DNA of 64,000 nucleotides from a virus (taxonomy: Duplodnaviria > Caudoviricetes), in the IMG/VR virus record IMGVR_UViG_3300037067_027616, positions 1 to 64,000 of that record; one strand, 5' to 3'. The notes beneath the pieces were generated by a model, which was not told the DNA's origin, searched no databases, and saw only the letters and a program-made list of their open reading frames with translations. Shown here in pieces: positions 5,458 to 61,112 of the stretch. The first letter of the stretch is position 1; each line of letters begins with the position of its first letter. The position numbers and the translations under genes were made by a program.

Positions 5458-5463
5458 CACGCC

Positions 5464-6186: not shown

Positions 6187-6192
6187 GGTTTC

Positions 6193-10070: not shown

Positions 10071-11014
10071 CAAAAAAGTGTTTCTATGATTGGTGCTTGC
10101 CTACTGTTCTGAATAAGAACTTCCCGGACATATCAAAACGAGTAGCCGCATGCATATTATGGGGATCCCAAGCCATAGACAATGATGACGATATATCTAC
10201 AGATCACGGATGGGGGCCGCTATTTGACCTTTTGTTGACTGAAGAAGACTACAACAAATATGGGGTCAATTTGCAAGTTTGTCTCAATGGATCCGGTAAA
10301 AAAGATTATCCGGGATATCTGCTACAGCCTGGGTCAAGAAATTATAGGCCGGAAATAAGTATGCGAGGGGATGAGGTATTAGAAGCTACAATAAACGTCA
10401 TGAGTATCCCGGGCTTCTTACAAAAGTTATTTAATAATGCATATCCTTTGCAAGGCCTTTCCTCCTGGAAGTACCTAGATGAAAGTATACTGTACTTCTG
10501 CAGGCACGGTAAAATTTTTTATGACCCCCTACAGGTTTTAACAGAAGAGTTGAAGCCCTATAAAAATTACCCGGAAGCCATATTAAAAAGAAGGGTGTAT
10601 ACTGAATTGAGAAAATTTTGTATGTTTGGACACTACAATTATGAAAGGATTGTAAGAAGGAATGACCTTGTAACCATATCTATATGTAAGACAGGTTTGG
10701 TCAATTCTGCTATGGCTCTTGTGATGCTCCTGAACAATGACTATGCCCCTTATTTCAAGTGGCTTCATGCAGAGTTCCTGAAGCAACCTAACTCCGCAGA
10801 ATTGAACCTTGATTTGATGAGCCTTATGAAAACAGACAGTATAGAAGAGCAATTGCTTCTAATTAAAAAAATAGAACATTTTATACAAAATAGTTTGGCG
10901 GGAAGCGAGTATTATTGCGCTTATTTTATTGGGAAACCTATGTCAATAATATATCTTGAGGATATTCTTACGGCTATAAAAGCAGATATTCCAGAAGAAA
11001 TATTGTATGCGTAG
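10049..11014 (+). CDS. DUF4037-family protein (predicted nucleotidyltransferase-like)
   Basis: GS....DDDISTDHGWGP, GKIFYDP, YP, YAPYFKWL. Confidence 0.8.
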   Translation: MGSGFEIAKKCFYDWCLPTVLNKNFPDISKRVAACILWGSQAIDNDDDISTDHGWGPLFDLLLTEEDYNKYGVNLQVCLNGSGKKDYPGYLLQPGSRNYRPEISMRGDEVLEATINVMSIPGFLQKLFNNAYPLQGLSSWKYLDESILYFCRHGKIFYDPLQVLTEELKPYKNYPEAILKRRVYTELRKFCMFGHYNYERIVRRNDLVTISICKTGLVNSAMALVMLLNNDYAPYFKWLHAEFLKQPNSAELNLDLMSLMKTDSIEEQLLLIKKIEHFIQNSLAGSEYYCAYFIGKPMSIIYLEDILTAIKADIPEEILYA

Positions 11015-28359: not shown

Positions 28360-29373
28360 TTATAGGCCGTAGTGTGCGAGATATTGGTTCGATATCGCCT
28401 TGAAACTCACCTTGGTCCCTGGGGCATCCAAACGGAACACCAACCCCTCTCGAAGCACCTTTGGGTTCAAAGGACACGGACCGTCCGCAAGGGCTAAAAG
28501 TTGCTCAAGCGTGTGATCAAGGACGAAGTGACGGTCGAACAACGGCACAGTCTTAAGTCCAAGTTCCTTGGTGAAGTGTTCCATGTCGTCCCACTGAAGG
28601 TACTCCCCTTTGGCTATGTTCCACACGTAGAAGACATAAAAATCCTGCCCTTTGAGGAGCATCCTGTTGCTTTGGATTCGTTCTCCCACCATCTCTGCCT
28701 GCACGGCGTATCCTACAGGCATCTTTTCCTGCAGATTGTACCGTTTGGCCACGTTCCAATAGGTGTTCTTACCGGTGTCCTTCCATTCCCAACTGTGACC
28801 GCATACTCCGAAGCGTTCCTCTGTTTTGAATACCGTGGTGCTGGTCCCATCGACCTTAACGGTGACCACGAAAAGTTCCCTGCGGCGTTCTTCGAGCCAA
28901 GGTGTCAAATTTTGTATTCGTTCTTCGTCCGTTTTGATACAGAACCCCGGTAACGCACCTACCGCCTCTCCAGACAAACTCACATCCATAGGGGGTTCAT
29001 AGAGAAGGACACCGAGGTCATCGGTGACATCGTCCCCAACGGATTTGTCTGCCACCGCAGGGAACACGGACACAGGAAGTGCGAGTCCTTGGGATATTTG
29101 CTTGCGAAGAAAAACGGTTTTGAGTCGATATCCCTCTATTTCCTCGCCATCAGCAATCATTTTCTTCGGGGAGGTTCCTTTCGCCATGAACTCAAACTCC
29201 GGGATGACCGGGAGAAAAGAATCCGTCTCGAAATAAATGGCCTTGTCACCGATCTTGAATTCCCCTTTACGGGACACGCACCACCATCCGCGTATTTTCA
29301 CGCGTTCGATGCGGTCAGCACCCTCGATGGGTTGCACATCATCAATGGATGCTATAGTGGCGAGTTTCCTCAC
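28360..29373 (-). CDS. RNA ligase (ATP), DRB0094/Rnl2-like family
   Basis: MRKLATI...IEGADRIE, YFETDS, ISQGL, KTDEERIQN, motif I KVDGTS, AEMVG, REGLV, FKAIS. Confidence 0.92.
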   Translation of the reverse strand: MRKLATIASIDDVQPIEGADRIERVKIRGWWCVSRKGEFKIGDKAIYFETDSFLPVIPEFEFMAKGTSPKKMIADGEEIEGYRLKTVFLRKQISQGLALPVSVFPAVADKSVGDDVTDDLGVLLYEPPMDVSLSGEAVGALPGFCIKTDEERIQNLTPWLEERRRELFVVTVKVDGTSTTVFKTEERFGVCGHSWEWKDTGKNTYWNVAKRYNLQEKMPVGYAVQAEMVGERIQSNRMLLKGQDFYVFYVWNIAKGEYLQWDDMEHFTKELGLKTVPLFDRHFVLDHTLEQLLALADGPCPLNPKVLREGLVFRLDAPGTKVSFKAISNQYLAHYGL

Positions 29374-32547: not shown

Positions 32548-40233
<7,686 letters not shown>

Positions 40234-40980: not shown

Positions 40981-43065
40981 ATGGCCATAAGTTTTCCGCT
41001 TAATCCTAATGACGGGGATCTCTACATTACCCCAAACGGTACCAAATATGAGTATCGTGTGATTAGTAATTCGTGGGTTATTGTAGGTATACAAGACATC
41101 GGTAACCCGGGTGTAACAGGTCTGCAGGGTGTGACCGGTGCCGCAGGACAAGGAACAACAGGGCTTCCAGGAGAAACTGGTTTTCAAGGAGTAACAGGTG
41201 CTCAAGGACAAACCGGAGCGGGTATAGATGGTGCTACGGGTATCCAAGGTCCTACAGGGGCACAAGGGACAACGGGGGCGGGAATAGACGGGGCAACGGT
41301 TGCTCAAGGTGTAACGGGCTTGGGATCAACAGGTCTGCAAGGTATAACTGGTGATCAAGGCGCTACAGGTGATCAAGGCGCTACAGGTGAACAAGGCACT
41401 CAAGGTATTACTGGACAACAGGGGTCAACAGGACTTCAAGGGGCTACAGGGTCGCAAGGAGCTACAGGTAAACAAGGAGCAACGGGAGCACAAGGCTCTC
41501 AAGGTATTACTGGAGAACCGGGGATAACAGGTTTACAGGGAGCCACAGGCGAACAAGGGGCTACAGGTCAGCAAGGGGCTACAGGAGAACAAGGAATTCA
41601 AGGAGCCACAGGAGAACAAGGGCCTCAAGGAATAACAGGTCTACAAGCAATAACAGGTTCTCCAGGTATAACCGGTAGTGTGGGTGTCACAGGCAGCGGA
41701 GGTATTACAGGTACCGAGGGCGCGACAGGTTCACAAGGAGTTACTGGCGAGCAGGGGTTAACCGGAGCGCAAGGTGCAACCGGACAGCAAGGAGCAACAG
41801 GAGAACAAGGTGCCACGGGGGAAATAGGTATTACAGGGACACAAGCAATAACCGGATCTCCTGGTATAACAGGTAGTGGAGGTATCACCGGGACCGGAGG
41901 TATCACAGGTGCTGGTGGTATCACCGGACTTCAAGGTGCTACCGGACAACAAGGTGCTACTGGCGCTCAAGGCGCCACAGGGGCACAAGGGACAACGGGG
42001 GCTGCTGGAAGTGGTGGTGCAACAGGGGTGCAAGGTGAAACAGGTGCTCAAGGAGAAACAGGACTTCAAGGAACAACAGGCCTTGCGAACTTCATACAGA
42101 CAGACTCCTTTGATGCACCTGTGCTAGTGCCTGCCATAATGTGGAACTTCACAGACGAAACGTTCTATGGGTATGTTACAGGGGCTGGTGCTTGGATACA
42201 GATGTCTTCTGCTTCAAAAAGCGGCCCAACAGGGTTACAAGGCAGTACAGGATTACAGGGCCCTACAGGTATAGAAGGTTCTACAGGGCATCAAGGAGAA
42301 ACAGGTGCTCAAGGTCAAACAGGTGCCCTAGGTTTAGGCAGTACAGGATTACAGGGCCCTACAGGTATAGAAGGTTCTACAGGGCATCAAGGAGAAACAG
42401 GTGCTCAAGGTTTAGGCAGTACAGGTTTACAGGGTACTACAGGTATAGAAGGTTCTACGGGGCATCAAGGAGAAACAGGTGCTCAAGGTTTAGGCAGTAC
42501 AGGTTTACAGGGTACTACTGGATTACAAGGCACTACTGGACTACAAGGAAATACAGGTCTTCAAGGGATATCACATAAAGTTCTTATACTAGGTGCCGCC
42601 GGAGGGTGGGGATCTGTTACAAACGGGTGTGCGGGGCCTACTAGGACAGAACTAACAACAAATAAAGTAAATATACAGACATTAGATTTCGCTGCTGCCG
42701 CTCAAAAGTATGCCGAGTGGACTTGCTATCTACCAAGTAACTACACATCAGCGGCGACTATAACCGCAACATTTATATGGACAGCAAACTCCGCAACTAC
42801 CAACAGTGTTGTGTGGGGGTGTTCGGCTAGAGCATATGCAGACAGTGGTGCTCTAGATCAGGCTTATTCAGCAGGCGTAGAAGTAACTGATGCCAATAAT
42901 GCCACCTATGATTTAAATATTTCAGCGGCCACAGGTGCTGTTACTATTGCAGGGAGCCCTGCCGCAGGACAAATGTTACAAGTAAGAGTATATAGACTAG
43001 GGAGTGGAGCAGATAACTTGGCGGCAACAGCTAATCTATTACAAGTCATCATAACATATACGTAG
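40981..43065 (+). CDS. Second collagen-like fibre protein (694 aa) with C-terminal globular domain
   Basis: GAGGT RBS; Gly-X-Thr/Gln triplets interrupted by a short W/Y-containing spacer. Confidence 0.92.
42241..42520 (+). repeat. Near-perfect in-frame tandem repeats (units start 42241, 42337, 42415, 42493)
   Basis: ggcagtacagg...tcaaggagaaacaggtgctcaaggt repeated with periods 96, 78, 78 bp. Confidence 0.85.
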
Positions 43066-48012: not shown

Positions 48013-49737
48013 TTATTTTAGTCTCACCGAATACAACCGTCCGCCGTCAAGGAACATCACCGATGTGGTGTCATTGAGCAACCTGTCGCCCGTATGGAAC
48101 GGCGGGCCGTCAACGACCTTCACCTTCGTGGGATCCCGGAATACCTCCACCTGTTGGTCAGTCGGCTGGTGCACGCAAATTCCATTGGCAAGCACCGTGA
48201 AATGCACGGACGGATCAGAGGGGTCATCATCGATGCGCATTTTGTACGAAGAGAAGTCATCTGACATGAACAACACGAACCTTTTATACTTACCATCTTT
48301 TTCAGCCACGGCCATGAAAACACCACGCTCGTGCTTGGCATCTATGATACGGTGTCCATCCAGCTCTTTTACCCTACAATTCGAGCATTTACCCTCCGTG
48401 TAGGGTATCGCCAACCAACAAGTGCCGAGTACGTCCTGTACCGCCACCCCGGGGAACATCGTAGTGGACTGCTGAAGAACATTGCCCACAGGCTTCATGA
48501 AGTGAAGTACCTTGCCGTTCATGAAGGCAAAGGAACTCTCGGTCAGCACCCCGTTGTAGGCCGTGTAGATGCGGCCGTCATACTGCATGGCCTTGTCCGC
48601 AGCGATACGACCCACCAATCCTCCCTGCATATCGTGGAACACCACCTCGTGACTGTCCTGCTCCGCCAAAACTGGGTGGCTCCCAGGAACGCGCGCCAAA
48701 GAAACTTTGCCTGGCTTGCTTGTGAACTTTTTCACAAGGTTGCCGCCCACGTATACGCCTTCCTTGGTAATGGCACAGTCGCTACCATCGAAGAACCACA
48801 CCCCAAAAGCAGGCTCCCCATAGTCCCGGTACAAAGAAACCTCAAACGAGTCGGTACCTTTTACCACCACAGGGCGCAAAACGGCGATGAAACCGGATAC
48901 ATCCGGTAGGGGAGGCTCACAACGGGCCCCAGAAGGCCCCAGGACCTCTTTAAACCACGCCAAATGGGCTGGGGGTACCGCAGACCAATCCGACCACGGA
49001 GGGCCTACAGATACGTCTGGGTGGAATACTGAAAGGCCCTTGTCCATACGGACTGACCAATCGTTAGGACCGTACTTGGCGTGCTTGCCCTTCCGGTAGG
49101 GGTGGTAGCCCACATACATCTGCCAAGCAACTATGGCGAAACTATACCAATCGGATCCTTCAGAGAAATCACCAAATTTTATGGATCTATCCCGAATGCT
49201 CTCCATTATGGCTGTGGCTTTGAACGTGGGCGTCTGGTAGGAGTCTACATCTATGAACAGCACCTCTTGAAAATTTTTATCCAAAAGGAAATTCATCTCG
49301 TTTAAATCCACCACGAGGATGCCTTCACGGTGGATTTCGGACACGGTCAGTTGCATCCTTTTTACAAGGTGCATGATGGCGTCCGGAGTTATACCGTTGT
49401 CTGTTTTGAACCCCTTCCCGAACATACGACACAGAAACTCCGTCTGCTCGATGTATGGCATCGTGAAACCGATTGGTTTGTTGGTCTTGCCATCGAGCAA
49501 TATGTCACGCGGACCGAGGATGTTTCCAAAACGAGCCAACGGCGCCAATTCCCTCACTTTGGCTACGGATATCATTCTTTTGGGGTCGTGGTATACTTTG
49601 TAGGCCGTCGATCCGCGGCGGCACACCGTACCCTCACCGCCGGCGGCGATATAGTCGTTCTTGTTGAGGGTTTCCGACCCCTTGCCCTGCACAACGACTT
49701 TGTACGGGAAGTTCATTGTGCACTCCGTTACGGTCAC
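48013..49737 (-). CDS. YegI-like Ser/Thr protein kinase with beta-rich C-terminal domain
   Basis: IAAGGEGTV, AYKVY, GFTMP, H.EGILVVDLNEMNFL, FIDVDSYQ, SDWYSFAI, G.HPY. Confidence 0.88.
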   Translation of the reverse strand: MTVTECTMNFPYKVVVQGKGSETLNKNDYIAAGGEGTVCRRGSTAYKVYHDPKRMISVAKVRELAPLARFGNILGPRDILLDGKTNKPIGFTMPYIEQTEFLCRMFGKGFKTDNGITPDAIMHLVKRMQLTVSEIHREGILVVDLNEMNFLLDKNFQEVLFIDVDSYQTPTFKATAIMESIRDRSIKFGDFSEGSDWYSFAIVAWQMYVGYHPYRKGKHAKYGPNDWSVRMDKGLSVFHPDVSVGPPWSDWSAVPPAHLAWFKEVLGPSGARCEPPLPDVSGFIAVLRPVVVKGTDSFEVSLYRDYGEPAFGVWFFDGSDCAITKEGVYVGGNLVKKFTSKPGKVSLARVPGSHPVLAEQDSHEVVFHDMQGGLVGRIAADKAMQYDGRIYTAYNGVLTESSFAFMNGKVLHFMKPVGNVLQQSTTMFPGVAVQDVLGTCWLAIPYTEGKCSNCRVKELDGHRIIDAKHERGVFMAVAEKDGKYKRFVLFMSDDFSSYKMRIDDDPSDPSVHFTVLANGICVHQPTDQQVEVFRDPTKVKVVDGPPFHTGDRLLNDTTSVMFLDGGRLYSVRLK

Positions 49738-50030
49738 GACGCAATAATGTCCAACGATGATATGGACAGATACTTGACGGATTTGACTTTTCCGGTAGGA
49801 TCCAAATCATCGTTGATTAGGTCGAACTCCACCGTCATATTGTCCCCATCGAAATCGTAGTGGTTTCCTGTGTCCCGGTGTCCTTTGACTGATTTGACCC
49901 TGCCATTGAACCCGTGTCGTGAAAAGGTGTTGACGTGGACTATGGAATTGTTGCGTGCCATAGTTTTAAGAATGCCCAACACAAACCTGTCGCTACTGTC
50001 CACGAACCGCAAAATCAGATCGGACTTCAT
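49734..50030 (-). CDS. Hypothetical protein
   Basis: AAGGAG RBS; GTGA overlap with the kinase. Confidence 0.55.
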   Translation of the reverse strand: MKSDLILRFVDSSDRFVLGILKTMARNNSIVHVNTFSRHGFNGRVKSVKGHRDTGNHYDFDGDNMTVEFDLINDDLDPTGKVKSVKYLSISSLDIIAS

Positions 50031-50086
50031 GTTTCGCTCCTTCCTTCCTTCATCCTCACTACAGTTGAAAAACCTAACACTAACAC

Positions 50087-50299
50087 CTATGCCCTTTCAA
50101 GTTTGCACGCCATGGTTCCTCTGACATGCGGGGCTGAAGAGTCGTAGTTCTCGCATGTCCGGCATGCACAGGAACCTACCATGGCCACCTTACCCTCGAG
50201 GTGCGGGTAGTCGGAGAAGTCGAACATCCTGTTCTTCTTGACCTTATGACCGTGAGGACACGGGGTCACGCAGTGGCGGGCCTTCACTTCGTAGTTCAT
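50087..50299 (-). CDS. Hypothetical Cys-rich protein
   Basis: CVTPCPHG, VGSCACRTC; ATGA overlap. Confidence 0.5.
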   Translation of the reverse strand: MNYEVKARHCVTPCPHGHKVKKNRMFDFSDYPHLEGKVAMVGSCACRTCENYDSSAPHVRGTMACKLERA

Positions 50300-50811
50300 G
50301 GTAGAGCTCCTTCTGGGAGCGTGGGCACGATGCGCATAGGATACAGCGGTCCCGAGTCCCTATCCCATTGTTCGGGGGATACAACTTTCTTTTGGATGTC
50401 CCACCACACCTGCTTCATGACTTTGGCCGTTGCCTCTTCCCCCGGGAACCATTGGCACAAGTACCAAAATGAAATGTGTGGCCTTGTGGGATCTGGTATC
50501 ATTTCGCAAACACTTTCCTGCCAGATCTTCCTGTTTTGATCATATAGCCCTGGCATGATCCTTCGCATAACCGTTTGGCGGCCATAGTCGGATCTCTCAT
50601 CGAGGTGTGTCTGTAGTTGCTCCCGCGAGTAGTCATCGGTCGGTACCCACTTCTTAATAAAACGTACGGACACCTTCTTCAAAGCCTTCTCGACGGCCTC
50701 TTGGCAGTCCGGGCAATACTCGGGATGGTTGTACGGGCCGTCCCACCCGCTCGGATGGTACCAATAGAAGGTTCCACAATGGACACATCTGCTATTTTTG
50801 GTCGTGGTCAT
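50296..50811 (-). CDS. Hypothetical Zn-binding protein
   Basis: CVHCG...YCPDC. Confidence 0.6.
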   Translation of the reverse strand: MTTTKNSRCVHCGTFYWYHPSGWDGPYNHPEYCPDCQEAVEKALKKVSVRFIKKWVPTDDYSREQLQTHLDERSDYGRQTVMRRIMPGLYDQNRKIWQESVCEMIPDPTRPHISFWYLCQWFPGEEATAKVMKQVWWDIQKKVVSPEQWDRDSGPLYPMRIVPTLPEGALP

Positions 50812-50844
50812 TGGATACTTACCTTAACACTGTTCATTTTTATT

Positions 50845-51321
50845 TCACGTCCACCCGAACGCGGCTCGTGTGTTTTCAAGGATGTCAGCCACGGACACAT
50901 CGTCCATTTTGAACCGTTTGCGATTTACTGTAATGCTGTAAGCGAGACTGCCATTATCGTGGCGTTCGCTCGCGCTTTTCCAATCAGCGAGAAGCTCTAC
51001 CAAGTCCACCAACGTCATGTCGGCTACGCCGCGCGGGTGGTTCTCCGGGTGGTGCCTGTGGCACGCATAATGGTGGTCAAGGGCAGGCTTGAGATCCTTG
51101 AGCATCTTGGCGTACTGTTTGCTCCCGTACGTGGAAGATTTCAGCCGGGGGGTCTCTCTGTCGAAAATTGGCTTCTCGGGAGGTATCAATTTGGTGCTAT
51201 CGTGATGGATGGCACGCTTGATGATCTCTGCCTGGAACGTGAGAAGTATCTCCTGCACGCGGCGGATATGCTTCAGCGTGTCATCGGTGCTGTCATATGG
51301 TGGCTGTTTCTTCTTCGCCAT
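50845..51321 (-). CDS. DUF5662-like HD-type metal-binding protein
   Basis: TLKHI, HHDSTKL, DHHY...RHHPE, MTLVDLVELLADWKSASER. Confidence 0.8.
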   Translation of the reverse strand: MAKKKQPPYDSTDDTLKHIRRVQEILLTFQAEIIKRAIHHDSTKLIPPEKPIFDRETPRLKSSTYGSKQYAKMLKDLKPALDHHYACHRHHPENHPRGVADMTLVDLVELLADWKSASERHDNGSLAYSITVNRKRFKMDDVSVADILENTRAAFGWT

Positions 51322-51329
51322 AATGGCCC

Positions 51330-52217
51330 TCAATCTATCAATGTGATGGCGGCGCACGAAACGTCATCGTAGTGTTTGACACCGGTCTTCTCACATTCTT
51401 TGCGGAAGGCCTTCATGCGCCTTTGCACAAACTCCCCTGCGAGGGACTTATAACCCGTAACTCGTCTCATCAAACCGTCATTGTCGAATGCAGGAGAGGA
51501 ATCATTCGCTTGGTAACTATCCAAGCCATCGCTGAACAGAACGATTTGCAAAGGTGGTTCGTCAAAAGCACACCCGATGTTATCTATAACATAGGAGTAC
51601 TCTCGGCAAGGCTCATTGTCCCATTGTGTTTCCTTGATTCCCTCTGGGCCATGAAAAGTCTGCCGTATCATCAAATGCCTTCCATCTTTAAACAATGCCT
51701 GATATCCGGCGTCCTTGTCTGGATGCATTTTATATGACAGGTAGTATGGAGCATTGGAGTCGTACGACATGTGAATACATGAGAAATGTTCCTGTGGTTC
51801 TTTGAACTTCACCAATACAGTACCATCTCCTATGGCCAAAACCCTCCAATCAATATAGTTGCGTTCTGGGGTTCTCAATGCGAACGCTGTAAGGAGGGTG
51901 GCATCAAAAGCATCGTATTCCAAACGCATAGAAGTCCGGACGTTGGAGGCCCTATCAAGAACCATATCGTAAAACTCGGACTCCATCCCGCCATCCTCCA
52001 TGAACCTGCTATCGCTGAATCTTCCTCGCGATAGCATGCCAAGGAGCGTATCTTTCGCGATGTGGGTAAGTATACGGGCGCCAACATCGGTGTCCTTGGA
52101 CGATGAACATCCATCGCTGACGATGGCCCAAGTCAAACCGTCCTTCGAACCACTGAGGGCGTAGTCCTGGCACACGGTGTGTGTGGAACCTATCTCGAAG
52201 TAATGGTCGCTATGCAC
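51330..52217 (-). CDS. PP2C-family (YegK/PphC-like) protein phosphatase
   Basis: GSTH..CQDY, VSDGCSS, DATLL, IGDG, FSDGL, YDDVS. Confidence 0.9.
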   Translation of the reverse strand: MHSDHYFEIGSTHTVCQDYALSGSKDGLTWAIVSDGCSSSKDTDVGARILTHIAKDTLLGMLSRGRFSDSRFMEDGGMESEFYDMVLDRASNVRTSMRLEYDAFDATLLTAFALRTPERNYIDWRVLAIGDGTVLVKFKEPQEHFSCIHMSYDSNAPYYLSYKMHPDKDAGYQALFKDGRHLMIRQTFHGPEGIKETQWDNEPCREYSYVIDNIGCAFDEPPLQIVLFSDGLDSYQANDSSPAFDNDGLMRRVTGYKSLAGEFVQRRMKAFRKECEKTGVKHYDDVSCAAITLID

Positions 52218-52241
52218 AGCCGCATTCCTTTGGGGTCAAGT

Positions 52242-53030
52242 CTATGCCGCCATCCTGTATCGGTTACCGAGGGTTTTGAAGGCCTCCTCATCAGATTCGA
52301 TCATGGCCTTAAACGCAACGACCTTATCTGTGTTGGGGGCCATTTTTCCATTTACCGCTTTGAGGTATACGCATATCTCCTCTATAACCTTCCCGCCTAC
52401 CCACACCTTTACATGGGATCTGTTGCGATACACTTGATAGGCCGCCCCACTCCTACCCCTCACCATTACGAACCCGTACCGCAGATACCTCTTGAATTCG
52501 TCCTCGGTGACCACCTCGCGGAGGGCTTCCATTGCTATTGCCTCTTCCACACTAATCCGGGAAGCTTCTTCGCACCGGGATTTCACAACAGGTGAAAGGT
52601 TTTGGCGCAACCTTGATAGTTTTATATCGCGTTTGCTTAAATTAAATTCGTTAAATGTGCTGTTGAGAGAAAAATTATAGTTATACAAGGGGGTAAACGT
52701 CGTGTTGCCTGTGAAATCGCCCGCGATGTAATTGTATCCTACCGTTGTATTATTATGAACAACAGCAAAATCTTCAGTCGTGCCAACACGAGTACCGTTT
52801 ATGGTGACTTCTAAATTGGGGTTTGTTACATTATAATTCCTGGAGGTATCTATAACATAGTTGTTCAACGAAGAGTAGATGCGTCTCCTGGTTTCTGGGG
52901 TGTCTTTCATTCCCACATAGCTGTTCAGCATCTCGGACAAATCGGTGCTGTAAGCTGCAGTGCATATCGTTGTGTCAGTCGAGTTACCTGTAAAATAAGT
53001 TGGTACTGTTTTGTTTATTAGTGTGGGCAT
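52242..53030 (-). CDS. Hypothetical protein, C-terminal Cys-containing domain shared with 53043-54104
   Basis: LRE....E..RYL..GF..VRG.SG..YQ...H...EIC...P.TD..AFKAMI..DE.AF..GN; TAAGGAG RBS. Confidence 0.75.
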   Translation of the reverse strand: MPTLINKTVPTYFTGNSTDTTICTAAYSTDLSEMLNSYVGMKDTPETRRRIYSSLNNYVIDTSRNYNVTNPNLEVTINGTRVGTTEDFAVVHNNTTVGYNYIAGDFTGNTTFTPLYNYNFSLNSTFNEFNLSKRDIKLSRLRQNLSPVVKSRCEEASRISVEEAIAMEALREVVTEDEFKRYLRYGFVMVRGRSGAAYQVYRNRSHVKVWVGGKVIEEICVYLKAVNGKMAPNTDKVVAFKAMIESDEEAFKTLGNRYRMAA

Positions 53031-53042
53031 AATACAAACTCC

Positions 53043-54104
53043 TTATCCTACCGCCATCTTGTATACGTTGCCGGCCTTTTCAAAAGCCTTTTCATCGGCT
53101 TGTATCATCGCCTTGAATGCTATGATGTTATCAGTCGGTGGCACGGGCATGTTCAAACGTGAACAGATTTCAGCAACAACTTTGCCCTTCTCCCTAATTT
53201 TAGCATGCCACTTGTTTTTGAAAAGCTGATATTCCCTGCCGCTGTCACCCCTCACCACGATGAATCCTCTTTTAAGATATCTACGCCACTCCGATTCAGT
53301 CAGCATTTCCCGGAGGGACTCCAACGCGACTATCTCCTCATCGGTATTTTTGGTACACACCGAAGGTACGTGGTTGCCCCCCACGTAATATTGATTATCA
53401 AAAACAAACCCATTTGGCATTTCTACATTTACATAGGGCAACTCTTCCCACTCGATTATTTCGGAAAAACGGTCATCACGTATGAATACCTTGAGTTGCC
53501 GTGTTATCCTCCCGAATTCTTCCCTTTCCAGCAACTCAATGGAATCTGGATAAACACACCGTTTAGTTCCGGAGAATTTAGGTATCCTGGGGTAGTCAAG
53601 ATTGACACGGAACAATCTGCTTAAACCATTTGAAGAAACATCATCCCACCTGTCGGTGTTGACGACTTTATCAATCATGACATACATGCCAGCAACTTTA
53701 GAATAGTTTGAATCGGATCTGCATGTCCGTCGAAGCCACGCACCCCATACAGGTTTTTCAGACCCCAAATATTCTTTTATGGTAGAGTCTGCCCACGTTA
53801 CTATTTCTCCAAGCACATTTTCCAATGTGTATGAAGCAACAGGAAATGAAAAAAAGCTTGATTCAACATGCATGTCCGTGTAGTGCGACACGGAGATAAC
53901 ATGCTTCTGTGTCTGTGCCAAAGTGTACTCTCTATTACCCACTCTGCGCCCCCGCCACCCCGCAGGTGCGTCCTCATCAATTTTTACAATTGATAAGGGA
54001 TGCTCGGCGGGGTATGGAATATACGCGGTCACAGGCCTGTTAGATCCTACGTGGCCCGTAATACCCGGGGAAGGTCTGGCATTATACAGCCTTGGTATCA
54101 ACAT
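53043..54104 (-). CDS. Hypothetical protein, C-terminal Cys-containing domain shared with 52242-53030
   Basis: Same C-terminal ~100-aa domain. Confidence 0.75.
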   Translation of the reverse strand: MLIPRLYNARPSPGITGHVGSNRPVTAYIPYPAEHPLSIVKIDEDAPAGWRGRRVGNREYTLAQTQKHVISVSHYTDMHVESSFFSFPVASYTLENVLGEIVTWADSTIKEYLGSEKPVWGAWLRRTCRSDSNYSKVAGMYVMIDKVVNTDRWDDVSSNGLSRLFRVNLDYPRIPKFSGTKRCVYPDSIELLEREEFGRITRQLKVFIRDDRFSEIIEWEELPYVNVEMPNGFVFDNQYYVGGNHVPSVCTKNTDEEIVALESLREMLTESEWRRYLKRGFIVVRGDSGREYQLFKNKWHAKIREKGKVVAEICSRLNMPVPPTDNIIAFKAMIQADEKAFEKAGNVYKMAVG

Positions 54105-54409
54105 CCTTCAGACCAACGAAGAAGGTCGTCTGGTGCATCGGAAGATGTTGTCAGCGCGGCGAAGGTCTTACTTCCGTGCCTGCCCACGATGAGACTCACA
54201 TCTGTGGCTCCGGTTATCTCCAATGCGCCATCGCTGTTTTTGAGTGCCTGGGACGCCTCGGTGAGGTCCTCTTTGAAACCCCTGAAATCTCTTTGGTACT
54301 TGCGTCCATCGTCATCATGGAGGTGTACTTCGCCGACACTCACATGCGCGCGGAATCCATGTATGCGTATCTCGTTTGTGCCACCCATATTGTGTTCCTT
54401 TCTTTTCAA
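54098..54409 (-). CDS. Hypothetical protein
   Basis: Coupled run; AAGGA RBS before MGGT. Confidence 0.55.
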   Translation of the reverse strand: MKRKEHNMGGTNEIRIHGFRAHVSVGEVHLHDDDGRKYQRDFRGFKEDLTEASQALKNSDGALEITGATDVSLIVGRHGSKTFAALTTSSDAPDDLLRWSEGC

Positions 54410-54418
54410 TAAAAGCTA

Positions 54419-54838
54419 TTAGCCTTTGGCGGTCGGCGGGATCATGAGTATCTCTTCGGCCTCAACATCAAACTCATCGATGCGATGGTTCTTCTTACCC
54501 TTCGCATCGACACTGTACGCCGAGTAACCGCTTTTGACCAGGCTCAAGAACTTATCCTTGGCCTCTTTTGCCTGCTTACCGTTGTTGCTGTCCCACACGA
54601 CCCTCTCATCGCCTTTGTCGTTGAGGATCTTAAGCGTGCGGTTGCCGATGTGGTCAACGGTGGCCATGGCGACAAGTTCCTCGTAATGCGGCCGGAAAAA
54701 CTGCACAGGCTTCCCGTTGGTATCCTGGATGGGCACACCCTTACGTTTGAAAGCCACGAACCACTGCTTGGCCTCCTCGACCTGCTTCTTGCTCTTACTG
54801 TCCCAACACAATCTGGTGTTCATCACAAGTGACTGCAT
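54419..54838 (-). CDS. Internally duplicated small protein, candidate tandem beta-grasp (ubiquitin-like)
   Basis: Two WDS...KQ..EAK..F....G repeats; C-terminus EEILMIPPTAKG; GGAGG RBS. Confidence 0.6.
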   Translation of the reverse strand: MQSLVMNTRLCWDSKSKKQVEEAKQWFVAFKRKGVPIQDTNGKPVQFFRPHYEELVAMATVDHIGNRTLKILNDKGDERVVWDSNNGKQAKEAKDKFLSLVKSGYSAYSVDAKGKKNHRIDEFDVEAEEILMIPPTAKG

Positions 54839-54847
54839 GGCACCCTC

Positions 54848-55234
54848 CTACTTGTTTTTGGTTTTCCTGGCCTTGTCAATGAGTTCGCGCAACCTCTCCA
54901 CGACAGCTATACCGCGCCGAGTGAGAGAAAGTTTGTACTCCCCATCGATGTTTTCAACAATGAGGTCGTCATTGTCACCAGACGCCTTGATCACGTGCTT
55001 GTCACCGGGTTTGAGGTCAAGAGGCACCTTGTCGAGTGACTGTTCAAACAAGTCACAATCCTTTTTGAACCGCATTTTGCCATCGGTGATGTGAATCGTT
55101 CCGAACGAATACACCTCCCAATTAAGGTCGTTCGGTTTCGTACCAATGGTGCCCCGTTCAATTATCTTTCCATCGGGATCTGAACCAGACGCTTTTCCAC
55201 CTTTGAACCGTATGAGTTCGAGGTGCTTTTTCAT
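54848..55234 (-). CDS. Hypothetical protein
   Basis: AGGAGG RBS; ATGA overlap. Confidence 0.65.
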   Translation of the reverse strand: MKKHLELIRFKGGKASGSDPDGKIIERGTIGTKPNDLNWEVYSFGTIHITDGKMRFKKDCDLFEQSLDKVPLDLKPGDKHVIKASGDNDDLIVENIDGEYKLSLTRRGIAVVERLRELIDKARKTKNK

Positions 55235-55428
55235 GAATCCTCCTTTTTTTCTTTAGATACAGGTTCCATTTCTGTCTTCACGCCGGCAGCTTCCAACTCC
55301 TGTTTGGTACACCGATACATACTCCCACATTTTCCGAGAGGACACGGATCCCCGCAGGAACACGTGCACCGCCCATCCTTACCTATGAGCACAATCTTTT
55401 CACCCATTTGTGGCACCATCCTCTTCAT
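55231..55428 (-). CDS. Small Cys-rich protein
   Basis: CTCSCGDPCPLGKCG..RC. Confidence 0.5.
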   Translation of the reverse strand: MKRMVPQMGEKIVLIGKDGRCTCSCGDPCPLGKCGSMYRCTKQELEAAGVKTEMEPVSKEKKEDS

Positions 55429-55792
55429 CTAATCCTGCGGAGTTTGAGCCTGTAAGGCCTGAAATTTCCCCATGCACATTCTTGAAATAATCTTGCCGTT
55501 CTACAACTTCCATCTCAATATCACGTAATAAGCAAGACAACATCATTTTTGATGCCTGCAACTCATCATCCGACATCAGCCTGAAATCGGGGGGTATAGC
55601 CTTTGGTTGCTCATCGGCATCAGTCATTTTAAATAATTCAAAAACCACGCATTTTTCCGCAAGGCCATTCAATAACCTGTCCCTTAAAAGGCATAGATTT
55701 ATATGAAGACTTTTTGGAAGTGCGTGTGCCTCGCTAAAAGTAATTTCACCTTGACTTTGAAGTTGTGGAATTTTGATCACGAGTTTAGGCAT
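55400..55792 (-). CDS. Hypothetical protein
   Basis: AAGGAG RBS at MPKL. Confidence 0.55.
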   Translation of the reverse strand: MPKLVIKIPQLQSQGEITFSEAHALPKSLHINLCLLRDRLLNGLAEKCVVFELFKMTDADEQPKAIPPDFRLMSDDELQASKMMLSCLLRDIEMEVVERQDYFKNVHGEISGLTGSNSAGLDEEDGATNG

Positions 55793-56096
55793 CGGAAAAC
55801 TCCTTCCAAAGCCTATGGAGAAAACCTTCAGCTTTATTGGTAGCATCCAATTCGGTTTCCTTGCTGAAATCCCTGCATGAAGATTTCATTGGAAGTATGT
55901 CTTCATAAAGGATAACACTGTCGTTCTCTGGGAATCGTGTATCCGTTATTTTACCGTTTTTGACCGATCGATAATGGACGTGTCCGCAGTTTGGACAATG
56001 TATCCGGTAGTTTCCGTTGAGGGACACGTTCATCATGAAGTCAAAGTATTTGTGACACCCTCCCGAGCAAAGGAACTCAGTTTTCACCCTAGGCAT
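55785..56096 (-). CDS. Zn-ribbon protein
   Basis: CSGGC...HCPNCGHVHYR. Confidence 0.65.
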   Translation of the reverse strand: MPRVKTEFLCSGGCHKYFDFMMNVSLNGNYRIHCPNCGHVHYRSVKNGKITDTRFPENDSVILYEDILPMKSSCRDFSKETELDATNKAEGFLHRLWKEFSDA

Positions 56097-56324
56097 CCGG
56101 AATCCCCTGTCTAATAACCAATGTCACGCGCGCACCTCTGGAGCCGCATCCTGGCATTCCTTCTTGTCCCCACAGTACCGCACATTGATGAACATGGTGC
56201 CTGGAGGTGACCCGTGGATCTCCGATACGTCCTTCTTCAAAACCTTTATCACCGTGGTTGGTCGGAGTTCCCCACATACCATACATACGACCTGACCATC
56301 GCTTTTGTCCGGCATACCCACCCC

Positions 56325-57071
56325 TCAAAACGTCAATGGCTGAGACGGCTTTCCCGTACCCAACGCCTGGGACGTGGACGACACGCTCTTGCTGATGAAG
56401 TCCGCCAACTTCGCCAACCTCGTAGGAGTTGCCGCACCCATCTCCACGAATTGGTCAATGCCGGAGTCAACCTGAAACTTGTTGAGGAGATCCATTACCC
56501 CAGGTTCGGTCCCTACGCCGATAAGCACACTCCGGAAAGACTCGAGCGTTTCGTCCGTGAGTATGCGTTTGATGGCATCTTTGATGACAGTCGGAGACTT
56601 CACCATATGAGAATCGTTCTCCCCGCCATCGGTTATGACAAACATGATAGCGTTGCAGGGAAAGTCCTTGTCGACCAAAGTCTTTCCATACCTCTCCGTA
56701 GACTCTACTGCATCCGCCGTGGCATCATACAAAGCAGTCATACCCCGTGGCTTGAGGATATCATCGTATTCCTTGGGGTCGATGTTGCGCAACTCCCGGA
56801 AACCATGCAACTCCTCAATGTTGCTATTGAACTCCACCAAGCGCAGGAGAAGGTTCTCGGATCGCGGGGACTTCTTGCAGGCCTCGAGTATCTGTTTCAA
56901 GGCCTTCTCCATGTCGTTTTTGTAGGGACCGACCGATGTGGACGTGTCCTGCACGATGGTGACGATGGTGTACTCCGATGCTCCAAGGCTGTTGATGTCA
57001 ACGGCGCTGAATTGGAAGTTGTGTACCGTGTTGTGCGTCTGCATTGGATTCTTGTCGAGAAGCTTCGGCAT
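56325..57071 (-). CDS. vWA domain protein (TerY/YegL-like)
   Basis: MIDAS DTSTS, VEFN, GMTALYDA, FVITDGGEN, LIGVG, SKSVSSTSQ. Confidence 0.9.
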   Translation of the reverse strand: MPKLLDKNPMQTHNTVHNFQFSAVDINSLGASEYTIVTIVQDTSTSVGPYKNDMEKALKQILEACKKSPRSENLLLRLVEFNSNIEELHGFRELRNIDPKEYDDILKPRGMTALYDATADAVESTERYGKTLVDKDFPCNAIMFVITDGGENDSHMVKSPTVIKDAIKRILTDETLESFRSVLIGVGTEPGVMDLLNKFQVDSGIDQFVEMGAATPTRLAKLADFISKSVSSTSQALGTGKPSQPLTF

Positions 57072-57130: not shown

Positions 57131-57499
57131 CTACCAACTTGATTTGAATGGCATGATAGGTATAGGGGAGTCGTCCCCTGAGTCCTGTGAAACACCACGT
57201 TGTGGTATGGCACACATTTGAAATTCACCGTTGTAATACGCCAAAAGGAACTCTCTCATTGAAAGGGTGTCGTTAATAACCGCCACCGTCATATTAGCGT
57301 TGCCAACTTTGATGTTCCTCCACCCCACAAGGTTGATTCGCTTTCTCTCCTCTGCTTGGGCCGCTCGTAGCTCTGATAAACGGAAAGAACCAAAAATGAA
57401 ACCGGAAGCCACCGCTAACATAGCTATTAAGCACAACGTGGCAAATCCACTTTTGGTTCTGTGCGGGTCAATGATGAAACTTTTGAGACATTCAAACAT
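57131..57499 (-). CDS. Membrane-anchored hypothetical protein
   Basis: One TM segment; C-terminal VINDT..REFL resembles 17125-17388. Confidence 0.55.
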   Translation of the reverse strand: MFECLKSFIIDPHRTKSGFATLCLIAMLAVASGFIFGSFRLSELRAAQAEERKRINLVGWRNIKVGNANMTVAVINDTLSMREFLLAYYNGEFQMCAIPQRGVSQDSGDDSPIPIMPFKSSW

Positions 57500-57509
57500 A
57501 GTAAACCCC

Positions 57510-58238
57510 TTACGCCATTGATTTCCAACCGTCCTTCAACATATCCGGACGGTGCTTGCGGCCCCATTCAAGCACGGAGGCATATTTTCGAGCCAATGCA
57601 GGCTTTCCCCCGGCCATCTGTTTGGGGTCATAGGCCATGTCGGCGCCCAAAGCAATACGCACGTATTCCTTGTAACTCGATTCAAGTTTGTCTTGAAGGA
57701 ACCCCGTGATCTTGGCCACCCGTACATCGTAACCTTCTTTTCGGAGATCCTCTTTCAACACGCTGTTGACGTATCCGGTACATATCTCCACTCTGTGAAC
57801 TTCAGGAGAAGCCGAAAAATCATCCTTCATGACTTCCCTGGCTACCCTGGAATACTCGTACAGATACTTTCCCGTGTCAAACACGCCTTTCTTGAACCAC
57901 CGTACATCAACTACGGCGGTCATCATGTTCTGACCATCTGACACGCCAACCATGACTCCGCATAACGGGAAGCCCCACCCTGTATCATCAAGCTGCAGTA
58001 CTTTAAGGCGTGTATCAGGTTTCTTAAATGTTCCATCTGCAAGGGACATTAGAAGATGCTCATCGGGTGTGACCACCGCTCCTGAAGTATATATTTTGAC
58101 ATTCCAAGACGTAGGCACCAAACCCCCGGCGCCTTTGTAAGACACCTTGAGGTACTTGTTGTTTTCGGTGCGCGGCAGAAGGATCCCTTTTGTGCTAAGA
58201 TCCTTCAAAGCCGCTTCCATGTTCGCTGTAGAATTCAT
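57510..58238 (-). CDS. Putative RNase HII/HIII-like nuclease
   Basis: LQLDDTGWGFPLCGVMVG resembles the IDE.G.G motif; N-terminal VKIYTSG.VV as in RNase HIII; start 58238 by ATGA overlap. Confidence 0.5.
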   Translation of the reverse strand: MNSTANMEAALKDLSTKGILLPRTENNKYLKVSYKGAGGLVPTSWNVKIYTSGAVVTPDEHLLMSLADGTFKKPDTRLKVLQLDDTGWGFPLCGVMVGVSDGQNMMTAVVDVRWFKKGVFDTGKYLYEYSRVAREVMKDDFSASPEVHRVEICTGYVNSVLKEDLRKEGYDVRVAKITGFLQDKLESSYKEYVRIALGADMAYDPKQMAGGKPALARKYASVLEWGRKHRPDMLKDGWKSMA

Positions 58239-59167
58239 GCCGTTGCTTTCTGTCCCCATTGATGAATCATAAGCATGTTCAAGCATTTCTCTGCTGCCCA
58301 AACCTTGTTTTTGAATTCGGAAGACCACAGCGTGTGTAGCACAAATCCTCTCGATTCCAAAGCTTCTCTTTTTAGCATCTCTTTGTAACGCGCCTCCCCT
58401 GCTGTGAGGTATGGGTGGAAAACGCACCACCCAATATCTGTGTCAATCATCTCGGGACACGGGTGAAACTTTTCTCCGTTGAACTCCAAAGCTTGTTTCA
58501 AAGAAGTTACAACGAAGTCATATTTGTAATGCTCCCCCTTGTAAGTCATCACGAACTCGTGATTCAATTCAGCAAAATAAGTGTGACTACGGTGTTCTTC
58601 TGGAAGCAGGCGGTACACCCTCCAAAACAAATCTTGACTTTGCTTGGAAGCCGATCTGCTCAAATAGGCAAGGGACGGGACACCGTACACCTTGAGTAAC
58701 GTGGCTTTTAATGCTTCCCGTGCCGAAGGTATCTGCAGTGGGTACTCAACCCCGTATCTCTCAAGCAGACTTATCTTGCTCTTTTCCTTACCTTGACTTG
58801 ACGTCAAATAGAATCGGGACCCATATCTACCAAGGCAGGTCTTCTCACATTTGTTTTTTGTTTCTTGAAGGGAAGAAACCGAGGACACCCCATACCGATC
58901 TTGAACCGTGCGCGTACGTTTTGTTTTGAACTCGACTGTTTGTGTGGCCCTTAATCCACCGTGGCGAATTCTGTCTGTGATCTCAGCTTTTATGCGACCG
59001 CACGACACACACCCCTTACCTGCCCGAAAATTCCTCAAGGTAGTTGTTCTCTCGTTACCGCAGGAGCATATGTACTTCATAGGGAGGTTATACCCTCTAT
59101 ACTCAACATCGAGCAGGGTGCACCCCCTCTCAAAGAACATATTGCGGACAACTTCCGTAGAGAACAT
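58235..59167 (-). CDS. Free-standing (homing-type) endonuclease, PD-(D/E)XK/DUF559-like, with Zn-finger and RYG repeats
   Basis: GCTLL..EY...MKYICSCG...GCVSC; repeated T...RYGV units; YKYDF...ALEFNG..FH; KRE...RGF...LW.SE. Confidence 0.8.
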   Translation of the reverse strand: MFSTEVVRNMFFERGCTLLDVEYRGYNLPMKYICSCGNERTTTLRNFRAGKGCVSCGRIKAEITDRIRHGGLRATQTVEFKTKRTRTVQDRYGVSSVSSLQETKNKCEKTCLGRYGSRFYLTSSQGKEKSKISLLERYGVEYPLQIPSAREALKATLLKVYGVPSLAYLSRSASKQSQDLFWRVYRLLPEEHRSHTYFAELNHEFVMTYKGEHYKYDFVVTSLKQALEFNGEKFHPCPEMIDTDIGWCVFHPYLTAGEARYKEMLKREALESRGFVLHTLWSSEFKNKVWAAEKCLNMLMIHQWGQKATA

Positions 59168-59169
59168 AA

Positions 59170-59973
59170 CTACCTCAAAAATTTGTCGGTCGTGGTAACC
59201 TTCATGCCCCGATCGATCATCTCCTTCATGAACTCCTTCTCTTTGTCTTCAAACCCCGGAACAGGGGAACAAGCATCCTCAAGGTACACAAACTTGCTAA
59301 CGTTGTCGTTTCCAAAACTGTTGGCAATATCAGTCACCGTTGCCCTTACGCAATGGCTGCTTGCCTCACCACCGATGGCGATCATGTCCATTTCCTGCAT
59401 CAACTTGATGAGGTTCGTGTTGAGTCCCGTGCCCGGATCCTCAGGATCGTAGACGTCTGCTTGTACGGCCGAATAATGCTCCGTGAAAATGTTGCTGCCC
59501 TTCGTAACGTAGTTCACCGCCGCGAACTCCTGCTCCCACTCGCAGAAAGCATCAAACAACGGGGGGTAGATGGCGGCGCCAAAAGAACCTATGAGGCAGT
59601 GCGGGGGCCATATGCACAGTACGTAGCGACCATTGGCCTTCAGATTCTGTACGTACTCCACCGAACGTTGCTGGTAGCCCCGGTTGGTTGCATGCCATTT
59701 GGGGTTTGGACCAACAACATCATCAACATTGATGAGCGTGAACGGATTCGGGTGGTTTCCGTCCTTATCCTTCCACCAAATCGGGTGTGCCACGTGAAGG
59801 GTCCGGTGTTGATCCATTGTGCTCACGATTTCTTCCAGATCTCCTTTTACCCTCTTGATCATGGTAGCCAAACGCTCCATGTCTTTATCGGCGCCTTTGA
59901 CGCTCAACTTCCCGGCGGGGTCACAGAAATCCACTTGACCGTCTACCACAAGTAGCGCAACTTTCTTTCCCAT
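59170..59973 (-). CDS. pncA: Nicotinamidase/isochorismatase-family cysteine hydrolase
   Basis: LLVVDGQVDFC, D.H...H, WPPHC, TKG, EHYSA, GEASSHCV. Confidence 0.88.
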   Translation of the reverse strand: MGKKVALLVVDGQVDFCDPAGKLSVKGADKDMERLATMIKRVKGDLEEIVSTMDQHRTLHVAHPIWWKDKDGNHPNPFTLINVDDVVGPNPKWHATNRGYQQRSVEYVQNLKANGRYVLCIWPPHCLIGSFGAAIYPPLFDAFCEWEQEFAAVNYVTKGSNIFTEHYSAVQADVYDPEDPGTGLNTNLIKLMQEMDMIAIGGEASSHCVRATVTDIANSFGNDNVSKFVYLEDACSPVPGFEDKEKEFMKEMIDRGMKVTTTDKFLR

Positions 59974-59994: not shown

Positions 59995-60600
59995 TTACTT
60001 TGTAAAGTTGTCGGATGCCTTCTTCGCGGCCTCCAGAGCCTGCATAGCCTTGTCGTAAGCCTCCCTGGTGTCCTTGGCGACCTTCTCCGCCTTGCTCAAC
60101 GGCGTGGACCCGTTGTCGTCCATCGTCACAATATTAGTGCTGTCAATGCTCCTTGGTGATAGATCCTTCTCGATGTCTTCAGACCACTTAACCATGACTT
60201 TGTTTAGGTACAATTTTGCAACCTTGACGACATCCTGTGGCAGTTCCATCAATTCCTTGTTCTGCGCAGCGGCATTGATGACCTTCGGTATCACGTAAAT
60301 GGCCACAGCCTGCTTGGTGTTTGGCAGAGCAATTTGAAATAACAGAGACACGCAAAACACCGGTATGAGTATCCTGCGCCACCACTTCCAAATTCCCACC
60401 CATCTTTTGCACCAAGCCTGTGTGCGTTGTAATGCTTCCCCGGGTTTGTCGGAATATAGGTGATCCGAACCGACTGCATAACCTATTCCATAAATAATCA
60501 ACCCAACAACCAAAAGCACAATGGAAAGAATCAGAAATACTTCCGATGCAGTTTTGAAGCTATCCAGCATGAAGAAAAAGTAAAGTATCCACCCACTCAT
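59995..60600 (-). CDS. Membrane protein
   Basis: Two TM segments; ATGA overlap with the macrodomain gene. Confidence 0.65.
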   Translation of the reverse strand: MSGWILYFFFMLDSFKTASEVFLILSIVLLVVGLIIYGIGYAVGSDHLYSDKPGEALQRTQAWCKRWVGIWKWWRRILIPVFCVSLLFQIALPNTKQAVAIYVIPKVINAAAQNKELMELPQDVVKVAKLYLNKVMVKWSEDIEKDLSPRSIDSTNIVTMDDNGSTPLSKAEKVAKDTREAYDKAMQALEAAKKASDNFTK

Positions 60601-61112
60601 GGCGTAACCCCCGTGTTAGTGTCGGCGGACTGGGTCTTCGTTTCCGGCCATTTGTCCGCTTCAGCCGGGAGTGTATAAACATATGTGTCCACCTTCATGG
60701 TAGCCATGATTATGGACTTGATTACCGGCCACTCTCCTCCAGCCAACCCCGCACCAATCCGGGGAACGGACACCGTGTAGCCTTTCTCAAGCGCGCGCTT
60801 CTGTACCTCATCGAGGCAGGTGTGCAGAGCTCCGTAGCGCAAAGGTATGCCTTCTTTGGAGGGTCGGATACCTTTCTGTGCGATCATGTTGGCCACGGTG
60901 ATGTCCGGCGACACGTCCACGAATTGGGTGTGACCCAACTGCATGTCGGCATTGGGCATAGCAAGGTAGTCCTGCTTGACTTGGGGATAGGTGTTTCCGA
61001 GAGGAATCACAAAGCCTGCGCCCCAAGCCCGAACCGTATTGCACACGTGGGCTATGATGGTAGGCTTTTTGACCGGCGCGGTGGCGTCCCCTATGACATG
61101 GTACAGTTGCAT
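60597..61112 (-). CDS. Macrodomain protein (ADP-ribose processing, Poa1p/TARG1-like)
   Basis: GDAT, IAHVCN..AWGAGF, VANMIAQ, PRIGAGLAGGEW. Confidence 0.92.
   Translation of the reverse strand: MQLYHVIGDATAPVKKPTIIAHVCNTVRAWGAGFVIPLGNTYPQVKQDYLAMPNADMQLGHTQFVDVSPDITVANMIAQKGIRPSKEGIPLRYGALHTCLDEVQKRALEKGYTVSVPRIGAGLAGGEWPVIKSIIMATMKVDTYVYTLPAEADKWPETKTQSADTNTGVTP

Follow-up and report, generated by a model that had tools for sequence, protein, structure and literature searches.

Known vWA/phosphatase/kinase triads and related systems

Triads of the TerY-P type, in which a von Willebrand factor A (vWA) protein is combined with a PP2C-family phosphatase and a Ser/Thr kinase, are widespread, and we know of no output for any of them. 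Here we describe such a triad in the first 64 kb (the window, positions 1 to 64,000) of the IMG/VR virus record IMGVR_UViG_3300037067_027616, a phage genome of 466,729 bp in its full length (the record), where the three genes form a cassette with a nicotinamidase-like gene. The TerY-P triad goes back to Anantharaman, Iyer and Aravind (2012), whose work is used here as summarised in PMC10542128 and PMC11090510. An earlier note on this DNA had proposed a phage-borne triad of the TerY-P or Escherichia coli yegL-pphC-yegI type, and the comparison bears this out, as a vWA protein with a metal ion-dependent adhesion site (MIDAS), a PP2C_2 phosphatase and a YegI-type kinase follow each other in the same order. 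In E. coli K-12 there is likewise an insertion (yegJ) between pphC and yegI. The locus differs from these systems in its kinase, which ends in a predicted beta-propeller, whereas known kinases of this type carry a Zn-ribbon (TerY-C) or a membrane segment, and those of the defence form an OB fold. It also differs in having a fixed nicotinamidase-like fourth member, a frequent nicotinate phosphoribosyltransferase (NAPRTase) neighbour and carriage by huge phages, and in that the triad of the record is not a compact operon but part of a 12-kb cassette, although most of its relatives are compact. TerY-P-like defence modules (Gao et al. 2020, as cited in PMC10542128) share with it a three-gene vWA/PP2C/kinase unit placed in phage-host conflict; they are described there with an OB-fold kinase, whereas the present unit is phage-encoded, linked to a salvage-type enzyme and without a PADLOC match for its vWA and PP2C proteins.

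The fourth gene brings the locus close to Preiss-Handler salvage (PncA plus PncB), with which it shares the D-K-C catalytic triad, the D-H-H metal site and the presence of a PncB-type NAPRTase after the kinase or inside the cassette; unlike PncA, the cassette enzyme has an insertion of ~50 aa. A vWA protein governed by Ser/Thr kinases and a phosphatase is known from the ArnA/ArnB system of Sulfolobus, where it is paired with an FHA/Zn-finger protein and controls the expression of motility genes. The structure model of the window vWA protein aligns to ArnB (8s05_B), itself a cytoplasmic vWA protein set by reversible Ser/Thr phosphorylation, but no sequence-level relationship goes past the shared fold. 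Phage NAD+ metabolism offers the remaining comparison, namely NARP1 (Adps and Namat), NARP2 (Nampt and Nmnat) and NARP3 (PnuC and an NadR-like protein) (10.1101/2024.02.11.579819; PMC13464706). These pathways rebuild NAD+ from what NAD+-depleting immunity leaves behind, which is the selective context that we propose for the cassette. A nicotinamidase is not mentioned in the papers on them, and they have no kinase switch (10.1101/2024.02.11.579819; PMC13464706); none of their gene pairs is found among the four cassette members.

Neither a pncA-pncB operon with an embedded kinase/phosphatase/vWA switch, nor a triad in a phage, nor an operon joining a nicotinamidase to a triad was found described in searches of the literature. 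The cassette is a variant of the TerY-P-like triad with an added enzyme and a propeller kinase, for which no description was found in the searchable literature. Its fixed enzymatic partner with a predictable reaction provides an assayable read-out for a TerY-P-type triad, and it would connect Ser/Thr phospho-signalling to the NAD+ economy, which is now at the centre of the conflict of phages with bacterial immunity. The window contributes the split state of the cassette, the evidence that the interleaved genes are passengers, an all-or-none test among capsid relatives, and a neighbourhood of PARP and macrodomain genes.

A four-gene cassette inherited or lost as a unit

Within a densely packed minus-strand gene run (46.5-64 kb of the window), the cassette comprises the following genes:

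59170-59973, minus strand: PncA/Pnc1-type nicotinamidase-like cysteine hydrolase of 267 aa, the first gene of the cassette
56325-57071, minus strand: TerY/YegL-like vWA protein of 248 aa with a complete MIDAS and a Ser-rich C-terminal helix and tail (phrog_7371, E 1e-16)
51330-52217, minus strand: PP2C_2-family Ser/Thr phosphatase of 295 aa (Pfam PF13672, E 7.5e-15, over the curated cut-off)
48013-49737, minus strand: YegI-like Hanks-type Ser/Thr kinase (aa 1 to ~290) followed by a predicted beta-propeller (aa ~298-574)

The coordinates, strand and order of the vWA, PP2C and kinase genes are as the earlier note had given them. The whole record has a single PP2C_2 match (51330-52217) and a single Pkinase match (48013-49737).

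We collected 106 related loci via the kinase, namely two huge-phage GenBank records, 23 IMG/VR contigs and 81 GTDB contigs, and surveyed their gene neighbourhoods by tblastn of all 28 local open reading frames (ORFs). In addition, 1,029 ORFs of the record of at least 100 aa were screened for recurrence near the kinase. Only the four cassette genes recur (in 106, 86, 85 and 77 loci, the nicotinamidase-like gene being found in 85 of the 106), and the next real gene occurs in 12. All four genes are present in each of the 25 viral relatives and in 66 of the 78 loci whose sequence reaches 4 kb or more beyond the kinase on its upstream side. The order nicotinamidase-vWA-PP2C-kinase holds in 69 of 73 loci, the other four being circular permutations in which the nicotinamidase-vWA and PP2C-kinase pairs stay joined. 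Median gaps in the relatives are 56 bp (nicotinamidase-vWA), 120 bp (vWA-PP2C) and 80 bp (PP2C-kinase, often overlapping), and the median span of the cassette is 4,398 bp; the copy in the record, with 11,957 bp, is the third largest.

The pairwise-distance matrices of the four families correlate with each other (r 0.83-0.89), a level attained in none of 300 permutations. Co-occurrence and related phylogenies of the triad genes, on which the proposal in the earlier note depended, were thus both found, in 66 of 78 loci and in congruent distances, respectively. The triad belongs to a four-gene accessory cassette that is inherited or lost as a unit. As the loci come from related phages or their likely hosts, some synteny is expected, and the four neighbours might have been kept together by shared ancestry alone, with no functional tie. 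We consider this explanation extremely improbable, given that the flanks of the cassette are shuffled, matching genes located elsewhere in the record, while the four genes remain joined, and that rearranged copies retain the pairs. Moreover, the distribution is all-or-none among close capsid relatives (see below), and the cassette is still found where kinase identity has fallen to 20-28%; LR756500, a phage that is much more diverged, has retained a compact four-gene copy.

Active sites and domain architecture of the cassette proteins

The nicotinamidase-like protein possesses both the Asp-Lys-Cys triad (D11/K158/C208) and the Asp-His-His metal site (D54/H56/H125) of PncA/Pnc1 enzymes of the isochorismatase superfamily, conserved in at least 97% of 71 homologues. 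Its family profile (A1) matches the solved nicotinamidases 2h0r (best, E 2e-12), 3pl1, 1ilw and 2wt9. Judging from the active-site residues, the enzyme is predicted to hydrolyse nicotinamide to nicotinate, a prediction to which the NAPRTase neighbourhood lends indirect support.

In the vWA protein, the MIDAS residues (D42-x-S-x-S46, T112, D148) are conserved. The Pfam VWA model matches the window copy weakly (E 0.006) and seven of the 21 family members (best E 2e-6); the AlphaFold2 (AF2) model of the protein (pLDDT 83) has exclusively vWA domains as Foldseek matches in the PDB. Compared directly with YegL, the profile of the vWA family gives a weak match (hhalign E 1e-3, probability 22%). The Ser-rich C-terminal motif is nearly invariant, with tail serines present in ~95% of copies, and by eye the tail resembles the C-terminal stretch of YegL. 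The phosphatase has kept its metal-binding Asp motifs (D18, D35-G36, G-D-G, D-G, D-D) in at least 97% of 71 homologues, and its profile matches that of E. coli PphC (hhalign probability 85%, E 5.8e-6). Searched against the PDB, the vWA and PP2C family profiles gave no sequence-level match.

The likely true start of the kinase is the ATG at 49716, as the family alignment opens at the MNFP...KVVV position. Its Pfam Pkinase score of 22.1 bits stays under the 31.7-bit cut-off. Compared by BLASTP with E. coli YegI, it gives E 2e-9 in an alignment that extends over the catalytic loop and includes the Mg-binding Asp. The profile of 21 family members matches YegI over the entire kinase domain (hhalign probability 98.4%, E 6.7e-15) and scores 45 bits on YegI in HMMER versus at most 28.5 bits on any solved PDB kinase. 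The features of Hanks-type kinases are all present and their residues are invariant among homologues, including the Gly-rich loop (GGEG), the ATP-binding Lys (K47, AYK), the catalytic Asp/Asn loop (D144...N149, D-L-N-E-M-N) and the Mg-binding Asp (D163, I-D-V-D). The catalytic motifs that looked intact in the window copy alone are therefore conserved in all three triad families. In the AF2 model of the kinase (pLDDT 87.3, pTM 0.84), the kinase domain is followed by an all-beta domain of ~28 strands. Because the Foldseek matches of this model comprise the LRRK2 kinase-WD40 structure, BamB, Cdc4 and FBXW11, the C-terminal domain of ~275 aa is predicted to be a beta-propeller, which gives a fold to the beta-rich domain (aa ~298-574) noticed earlier. 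Just upstream of the kinase start, in the 3' end of the preceding ORF, there is an inverted repeat (49752-49766 / 49801-49815) with arms of 15 nt that are 93% complementary and 34 nt apart.

Genes inserted into the cassette

The cassette of the record is split by three insertions:

57131-59167, minus strand: insertion 1, three ORFs between the nicotinamidase-like and vWA genes (58235-59167, 57510-58430 and 57131-57499)
52242-56328, minus strand: insertion 2, nine ORFs between the vWA and PP2C genes, including the paralogues 52242-53030 and 53043-54104
49734-51357, minus strand: insertion 3, four ORFs between the PP2C and kinase genes (50845-51357, 50296-50811, 50087-50299 and 49734-50030)

The inserted ORFs total 16, three between the nicotinamidase-like and vWA genes and 13 (nine plus four) in the 9 kb from the vWA gene to the kinase, where the earlier note had counted about a dozen. 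By tblastn, each of the 16 recurs beside the cassette in one of the 106 loci at most, and the genome-wide ORF screen agrees. The first ORF of insertion 1 (58235-59167) is homing-endonuclease-like (Pfam DUF7487, E 8e-14; PHROG homing or HNH endonuclease families, E 1.6e-10 to 6e-8), and no ORF of this insertion is conserved beside the cassette in related loci. Near the kinase, none of the 106 loci has a homologue of the ORFs of insertion 2, which have no match in Pfam, PHROG, NCBIfam or PADLOC. In insertion 3, one of the four ORFs is found again in one related locus, the other three nowhere. Its first product (50845-51357), previously taken for an HD-like protein, is a member of Pfam DUF5662 (E 7e-31), for which a PDB search gave no relative; its second (50296-50811) has a 4-Cys ribbon-like motif (CVHC...CPDC), the one clear case among the inserts, where Zn-ribbons had been noted. 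The paralogues 52242-53030 and 53043-54104 are the two largest interleaved proteins and have in common a C-terminal domain of ~100 aa with 50% identity; a third copy of this domain, without a family match, lies at 418373-418678 of the record.

The tblastn survey of the 28 local ORFs rejects the interleaved genes as partners, only the four cassette genes being recurrent. These genes are passengers and not worth chasing as partners. This bears on the interpretation advanced in the earlier note, according to which the triad is a general phosphorylation switch for host takeover and may act on, or together with, the small proteins encoded between its genes. Remodelling of host proteins by phage kinases is known (T7 gp0.7), and all genes of the region are on one strand; since there is also no excess of terminator-like sites, they are probably co-transcribed. 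Nevertheless, we hold this interpretation to be very unlikely, because only one of the 106 loci has any of the interleaved genes, most relatives are too compact to accommodate them, and the partner that is conserved is the nicotinamidase-like enzyme.

Given that most relatives are compact and the interleaved genes are not conserved in them, the dispersal is the derived state of the record: an ancestral compact operon has been broken up by three insertions, with all four cassette genes left intact. The split state shows that the cassette tolerates the loss of a tight operon structure. An integron-like insertion was considered, as the record has a cassette array elsewhere, and rejected, no attC-like hairpin family being found at the gene boundaries. 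No repeat or hairpin signature of an insertion mechanism was detected in the region, nor an excess of promoter-like sites. The GC content of the inserts, 0.482 versus 0.517 for the cassette, is not decisive for a foreign origin.

Distribution of the cassette among phages and bacteria

The record is a phage genome, as evidenced by its collagen-like tail fibres, its phrog_2522 major head protein (280271-281152) and its status as an IMG/VR virus record. By means of this head protein, relatives were picked with no use of the kinase. In four complete genomes, which have direct terminal repeats and a capsid protein 65-72% identical to that of the record, neither the kinase nor the nicotinamidase nor a cassette-type vWA gene is present; the positive controls were detected. 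The same capsid family is found in all four IMG/VR cassette-bearing genomes checked. That the cassette belongs to the core genes of this phage lineage is rejected by the four complete capsid relatives that lack it; the cassette is accessory, and its distribution is all-or-none. IMG/VR classes the record as 'provirus', whereas the genomes of two relatives with the cassette (G006 and G007) are complete and have direct terminal repeats. Searches of the record for a terminase as a lineage marker with PF03237 and PF17289 gave no match.

Among bacteria, two complete chromosomes of the Capsulimonadaceae family (Armatimonadota), OZ244065.1 and OZ241338.1, carry the cassette among bacterial neighbours, including LeuA, an MFS transporter, a BlaR1-type peptidase and a sigma factor. 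A prophage origin of the Capsulimonadaceae copies was rejected, as no phrog_2522 capsid gene was found in seven genomes of the family and the flanks are bacterial. The cassette is therefore common to many huge phages and to bacterial chromosomes, of which the two Capsulimonadaceae are the demonstrated cases. In a midpoint-rooted tree, the bacterial copies fall inside the viral diversity; the root being uncertain, no direction of transfer can be concluded.

NAD+ salvage and ADP-ribosylation genes around the cassette

NAPRTase genes are recurrent neighbours of the cassette. In OZ244065.1 and OZ241338.1, a PncB-type NAPRTase (PF04095, E 1e-73) follows within ~90 bp after the kinase, and in the viral contigs L015, L020/L030 and L026, the same type lies between cassette genes. 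A second, unrelated type (2f7f-like) is located just upstream in L029, L010, L018, L027 and L080. Altogether, 25-27 of 107 loci have a NAPRTase within 10 kb of the kinase. The record has a NAPRTase of its own, of the 2f7f type, at 212819-214321 (minus strand; E 5e-54). Such a recurrent neighbourhood, together with the nicotinamidase-like gene, points to NAD+ salvage rather than to a generic switch for takeover or exclusion. Beside the NAPRTase of L045, an NrtR-like gene was considered and rejected, the candidate being a flavin reductase.

Genes related to ADP-ribosylation are also found on the strand of the cassette, upstream of it. A macrodomain protein (60597-61112, minus strand), encoded two genes before the nicotinamidase-like enzyme, matches PDB 5e3b (Streptomyces SCO6735-type, E 1e-29) and has no Pfam match at E up to 0.01. 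Further upstream in the record, at 68962-70353 (minus strand), there is a eukaryote-like PARP with WGR, PARP_reg and PARP catalytic domains. The stretch L113, whose position 8962 corresponds to position 68962 of the record, extends this view with a nucleoside 2-deoxyribosyltransferase-like protein (10460-10945, minus strand) upstream of the cassette. In three bacterial-type loci (L041, L033 and L035), a PARP homologue directly follows the kinase.

These neighbours could mean that the nicotinamidase clears inhibitory nicotinamide for the sake of ADP-ribosylation by the phage, with the triad timing the removal and NAD+ resynthesis being secondary. Yeast Pnc1, which activates Sir2 through nicotinamide removal, is a precedent. 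However, a PARP is near the cassette in three of 106 loci versus a NAPRTase in ~25, and the bacterial copies pair with a NAPRTase, not with a PARP; on balance, product removal as the primary role seems unlikely.

Proposed function of the cassette

We propose that the cassette is a phosphorylation switch that acts on nicotinamide removal and NAD+ recycling during infection, a reading to which we assign a probability of roughly 0.55 and whose mechanism is deduced from the protein families and their neighbourhood. Nicotinamide is a product of NADases and ADP-ribosyltransferases. The nicotinamidase-like enzyme would deamidate it to nicotinate, from which NAD+ could be resynthesised via a NAPRTase, provided by the gene at 212.8 kb in the record and by the genes beside or inside the cassette in relatives. 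The triad would impose a reversible phospho-switch on the deamidation step: the kinase may phosphorylate the vWA protein on its Ser-rich C-terminal tail, and possibly also the enzyme, its propeller may sense or dock a ligand, the vWA protein may hold and release the enzyme or another target via its MIDAS, and the PP2C phosphatase would reset the phosphorylation state. The phage would benefit from maintaining NAD+ and lowering nicotinamide in the infected cell, be it to counter immunity that depletes NAD+ or to aid its own PARP or other ADP-ribosyltransferases.

A more specific version of this scheme, which we put forward as a tentative and rather doubtful possibility, would make the cassette a fourth phage route of NAD+ rebuilding, of the Preiss-Handler type and regulated, in which the first step is gated by the kinase/phosphatase/vWA switch, the propeller senses NAD+ cleavage products or immune signalling, and the whole is exchanged as a unit between huge phages and their hosts.

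Several observations weigh against the proposed phosphorylation switch. Given the insertion of ~50 aa relative to the solved nicotinamidases and a substrate assignment drawn from active-site residues, the enzyme might use another amide. What we observe are four families with intact active sites, their co-occurrence, joint inheritance and all-or-none distribution, the link to a NAPRTase and the derived split; the substrate of the enzyme, the assignment of phosphorylation targets to the kinase and the gain for the phage are deduced. Only about one locus in four has an adjacent NAPRTase, and that of the record lies 153 kb from the nicotinamidase-like gene. The unit is not strictly obligate, since in five loci the kinase occurs without the other three genes within 10 kb (L085, L089, L099, L102 and L070, in the last apart from the nearest upstream kilobases) and in four loci (L034, L058, L067 and L108) PP2C was undetected, the vWA gene abutting the kinase in L034, L058 and L108. 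The accessory, all-or-none status derives from four complete genomes. Many contigs from metagenome-assembled genomes may be mis-binned phage DNA, bacterial residence having been checked in L045 and L052 only. Finally, TerY-P-like modules act as stand-alone anti-phage systems (Gao et al. 2020, to the extent reported in PMC10542128).

This last point, along with a patchy all-or-none distribution typical of defence islands and the occurrence of the cassette in bacterial chromosomes, would suit a phage-carried system of defence or exclusion of the TerY-P type, in which the triad would respond to a competing phage or mobile element by switching on an effector, either the hydrolase or a host target, with which the resident huge phage shuts out its rivals. 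On the other side, PADLOC gave no match for the vWA or PP2C protein (E up to 0.01) and only weak matches for the kinase (mads_6, PD-T4-6), and the model of the kinase shows a propeller where the defence form has an OB fold. That the constant partner is an enzyme of the salvage type, repeatedly joined by two unrelated NAPRTase types, suits metabolism better than a toxic effector. Exclusion of rivals is accordingly a role that we rate as improbable, and we favour the phosphorylation switch on nicotinamide removal.

Other genes of the record and its relatives

On the same strand upstream of the cassette, the stretch L113 encodes a full sigma-70 factor (3982-4875, minus strand). Beside the bacterial cassette in L045, a protein of 1000 aa with WGR and ATP-dependent DNA-ligase domains is encoded (3678-6680, minus strand), which is 45% identical to the product of 111881-112957 in the record. 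Elsewhere in the window, there are two very large collagen-like tail-fibre proteins of 2561 and 694 aa (32548-40233 and 40981-43065, plus strand), as well as an RNA ligase (28360-29373, minus strand; phrog_968, E 7.5e-77).

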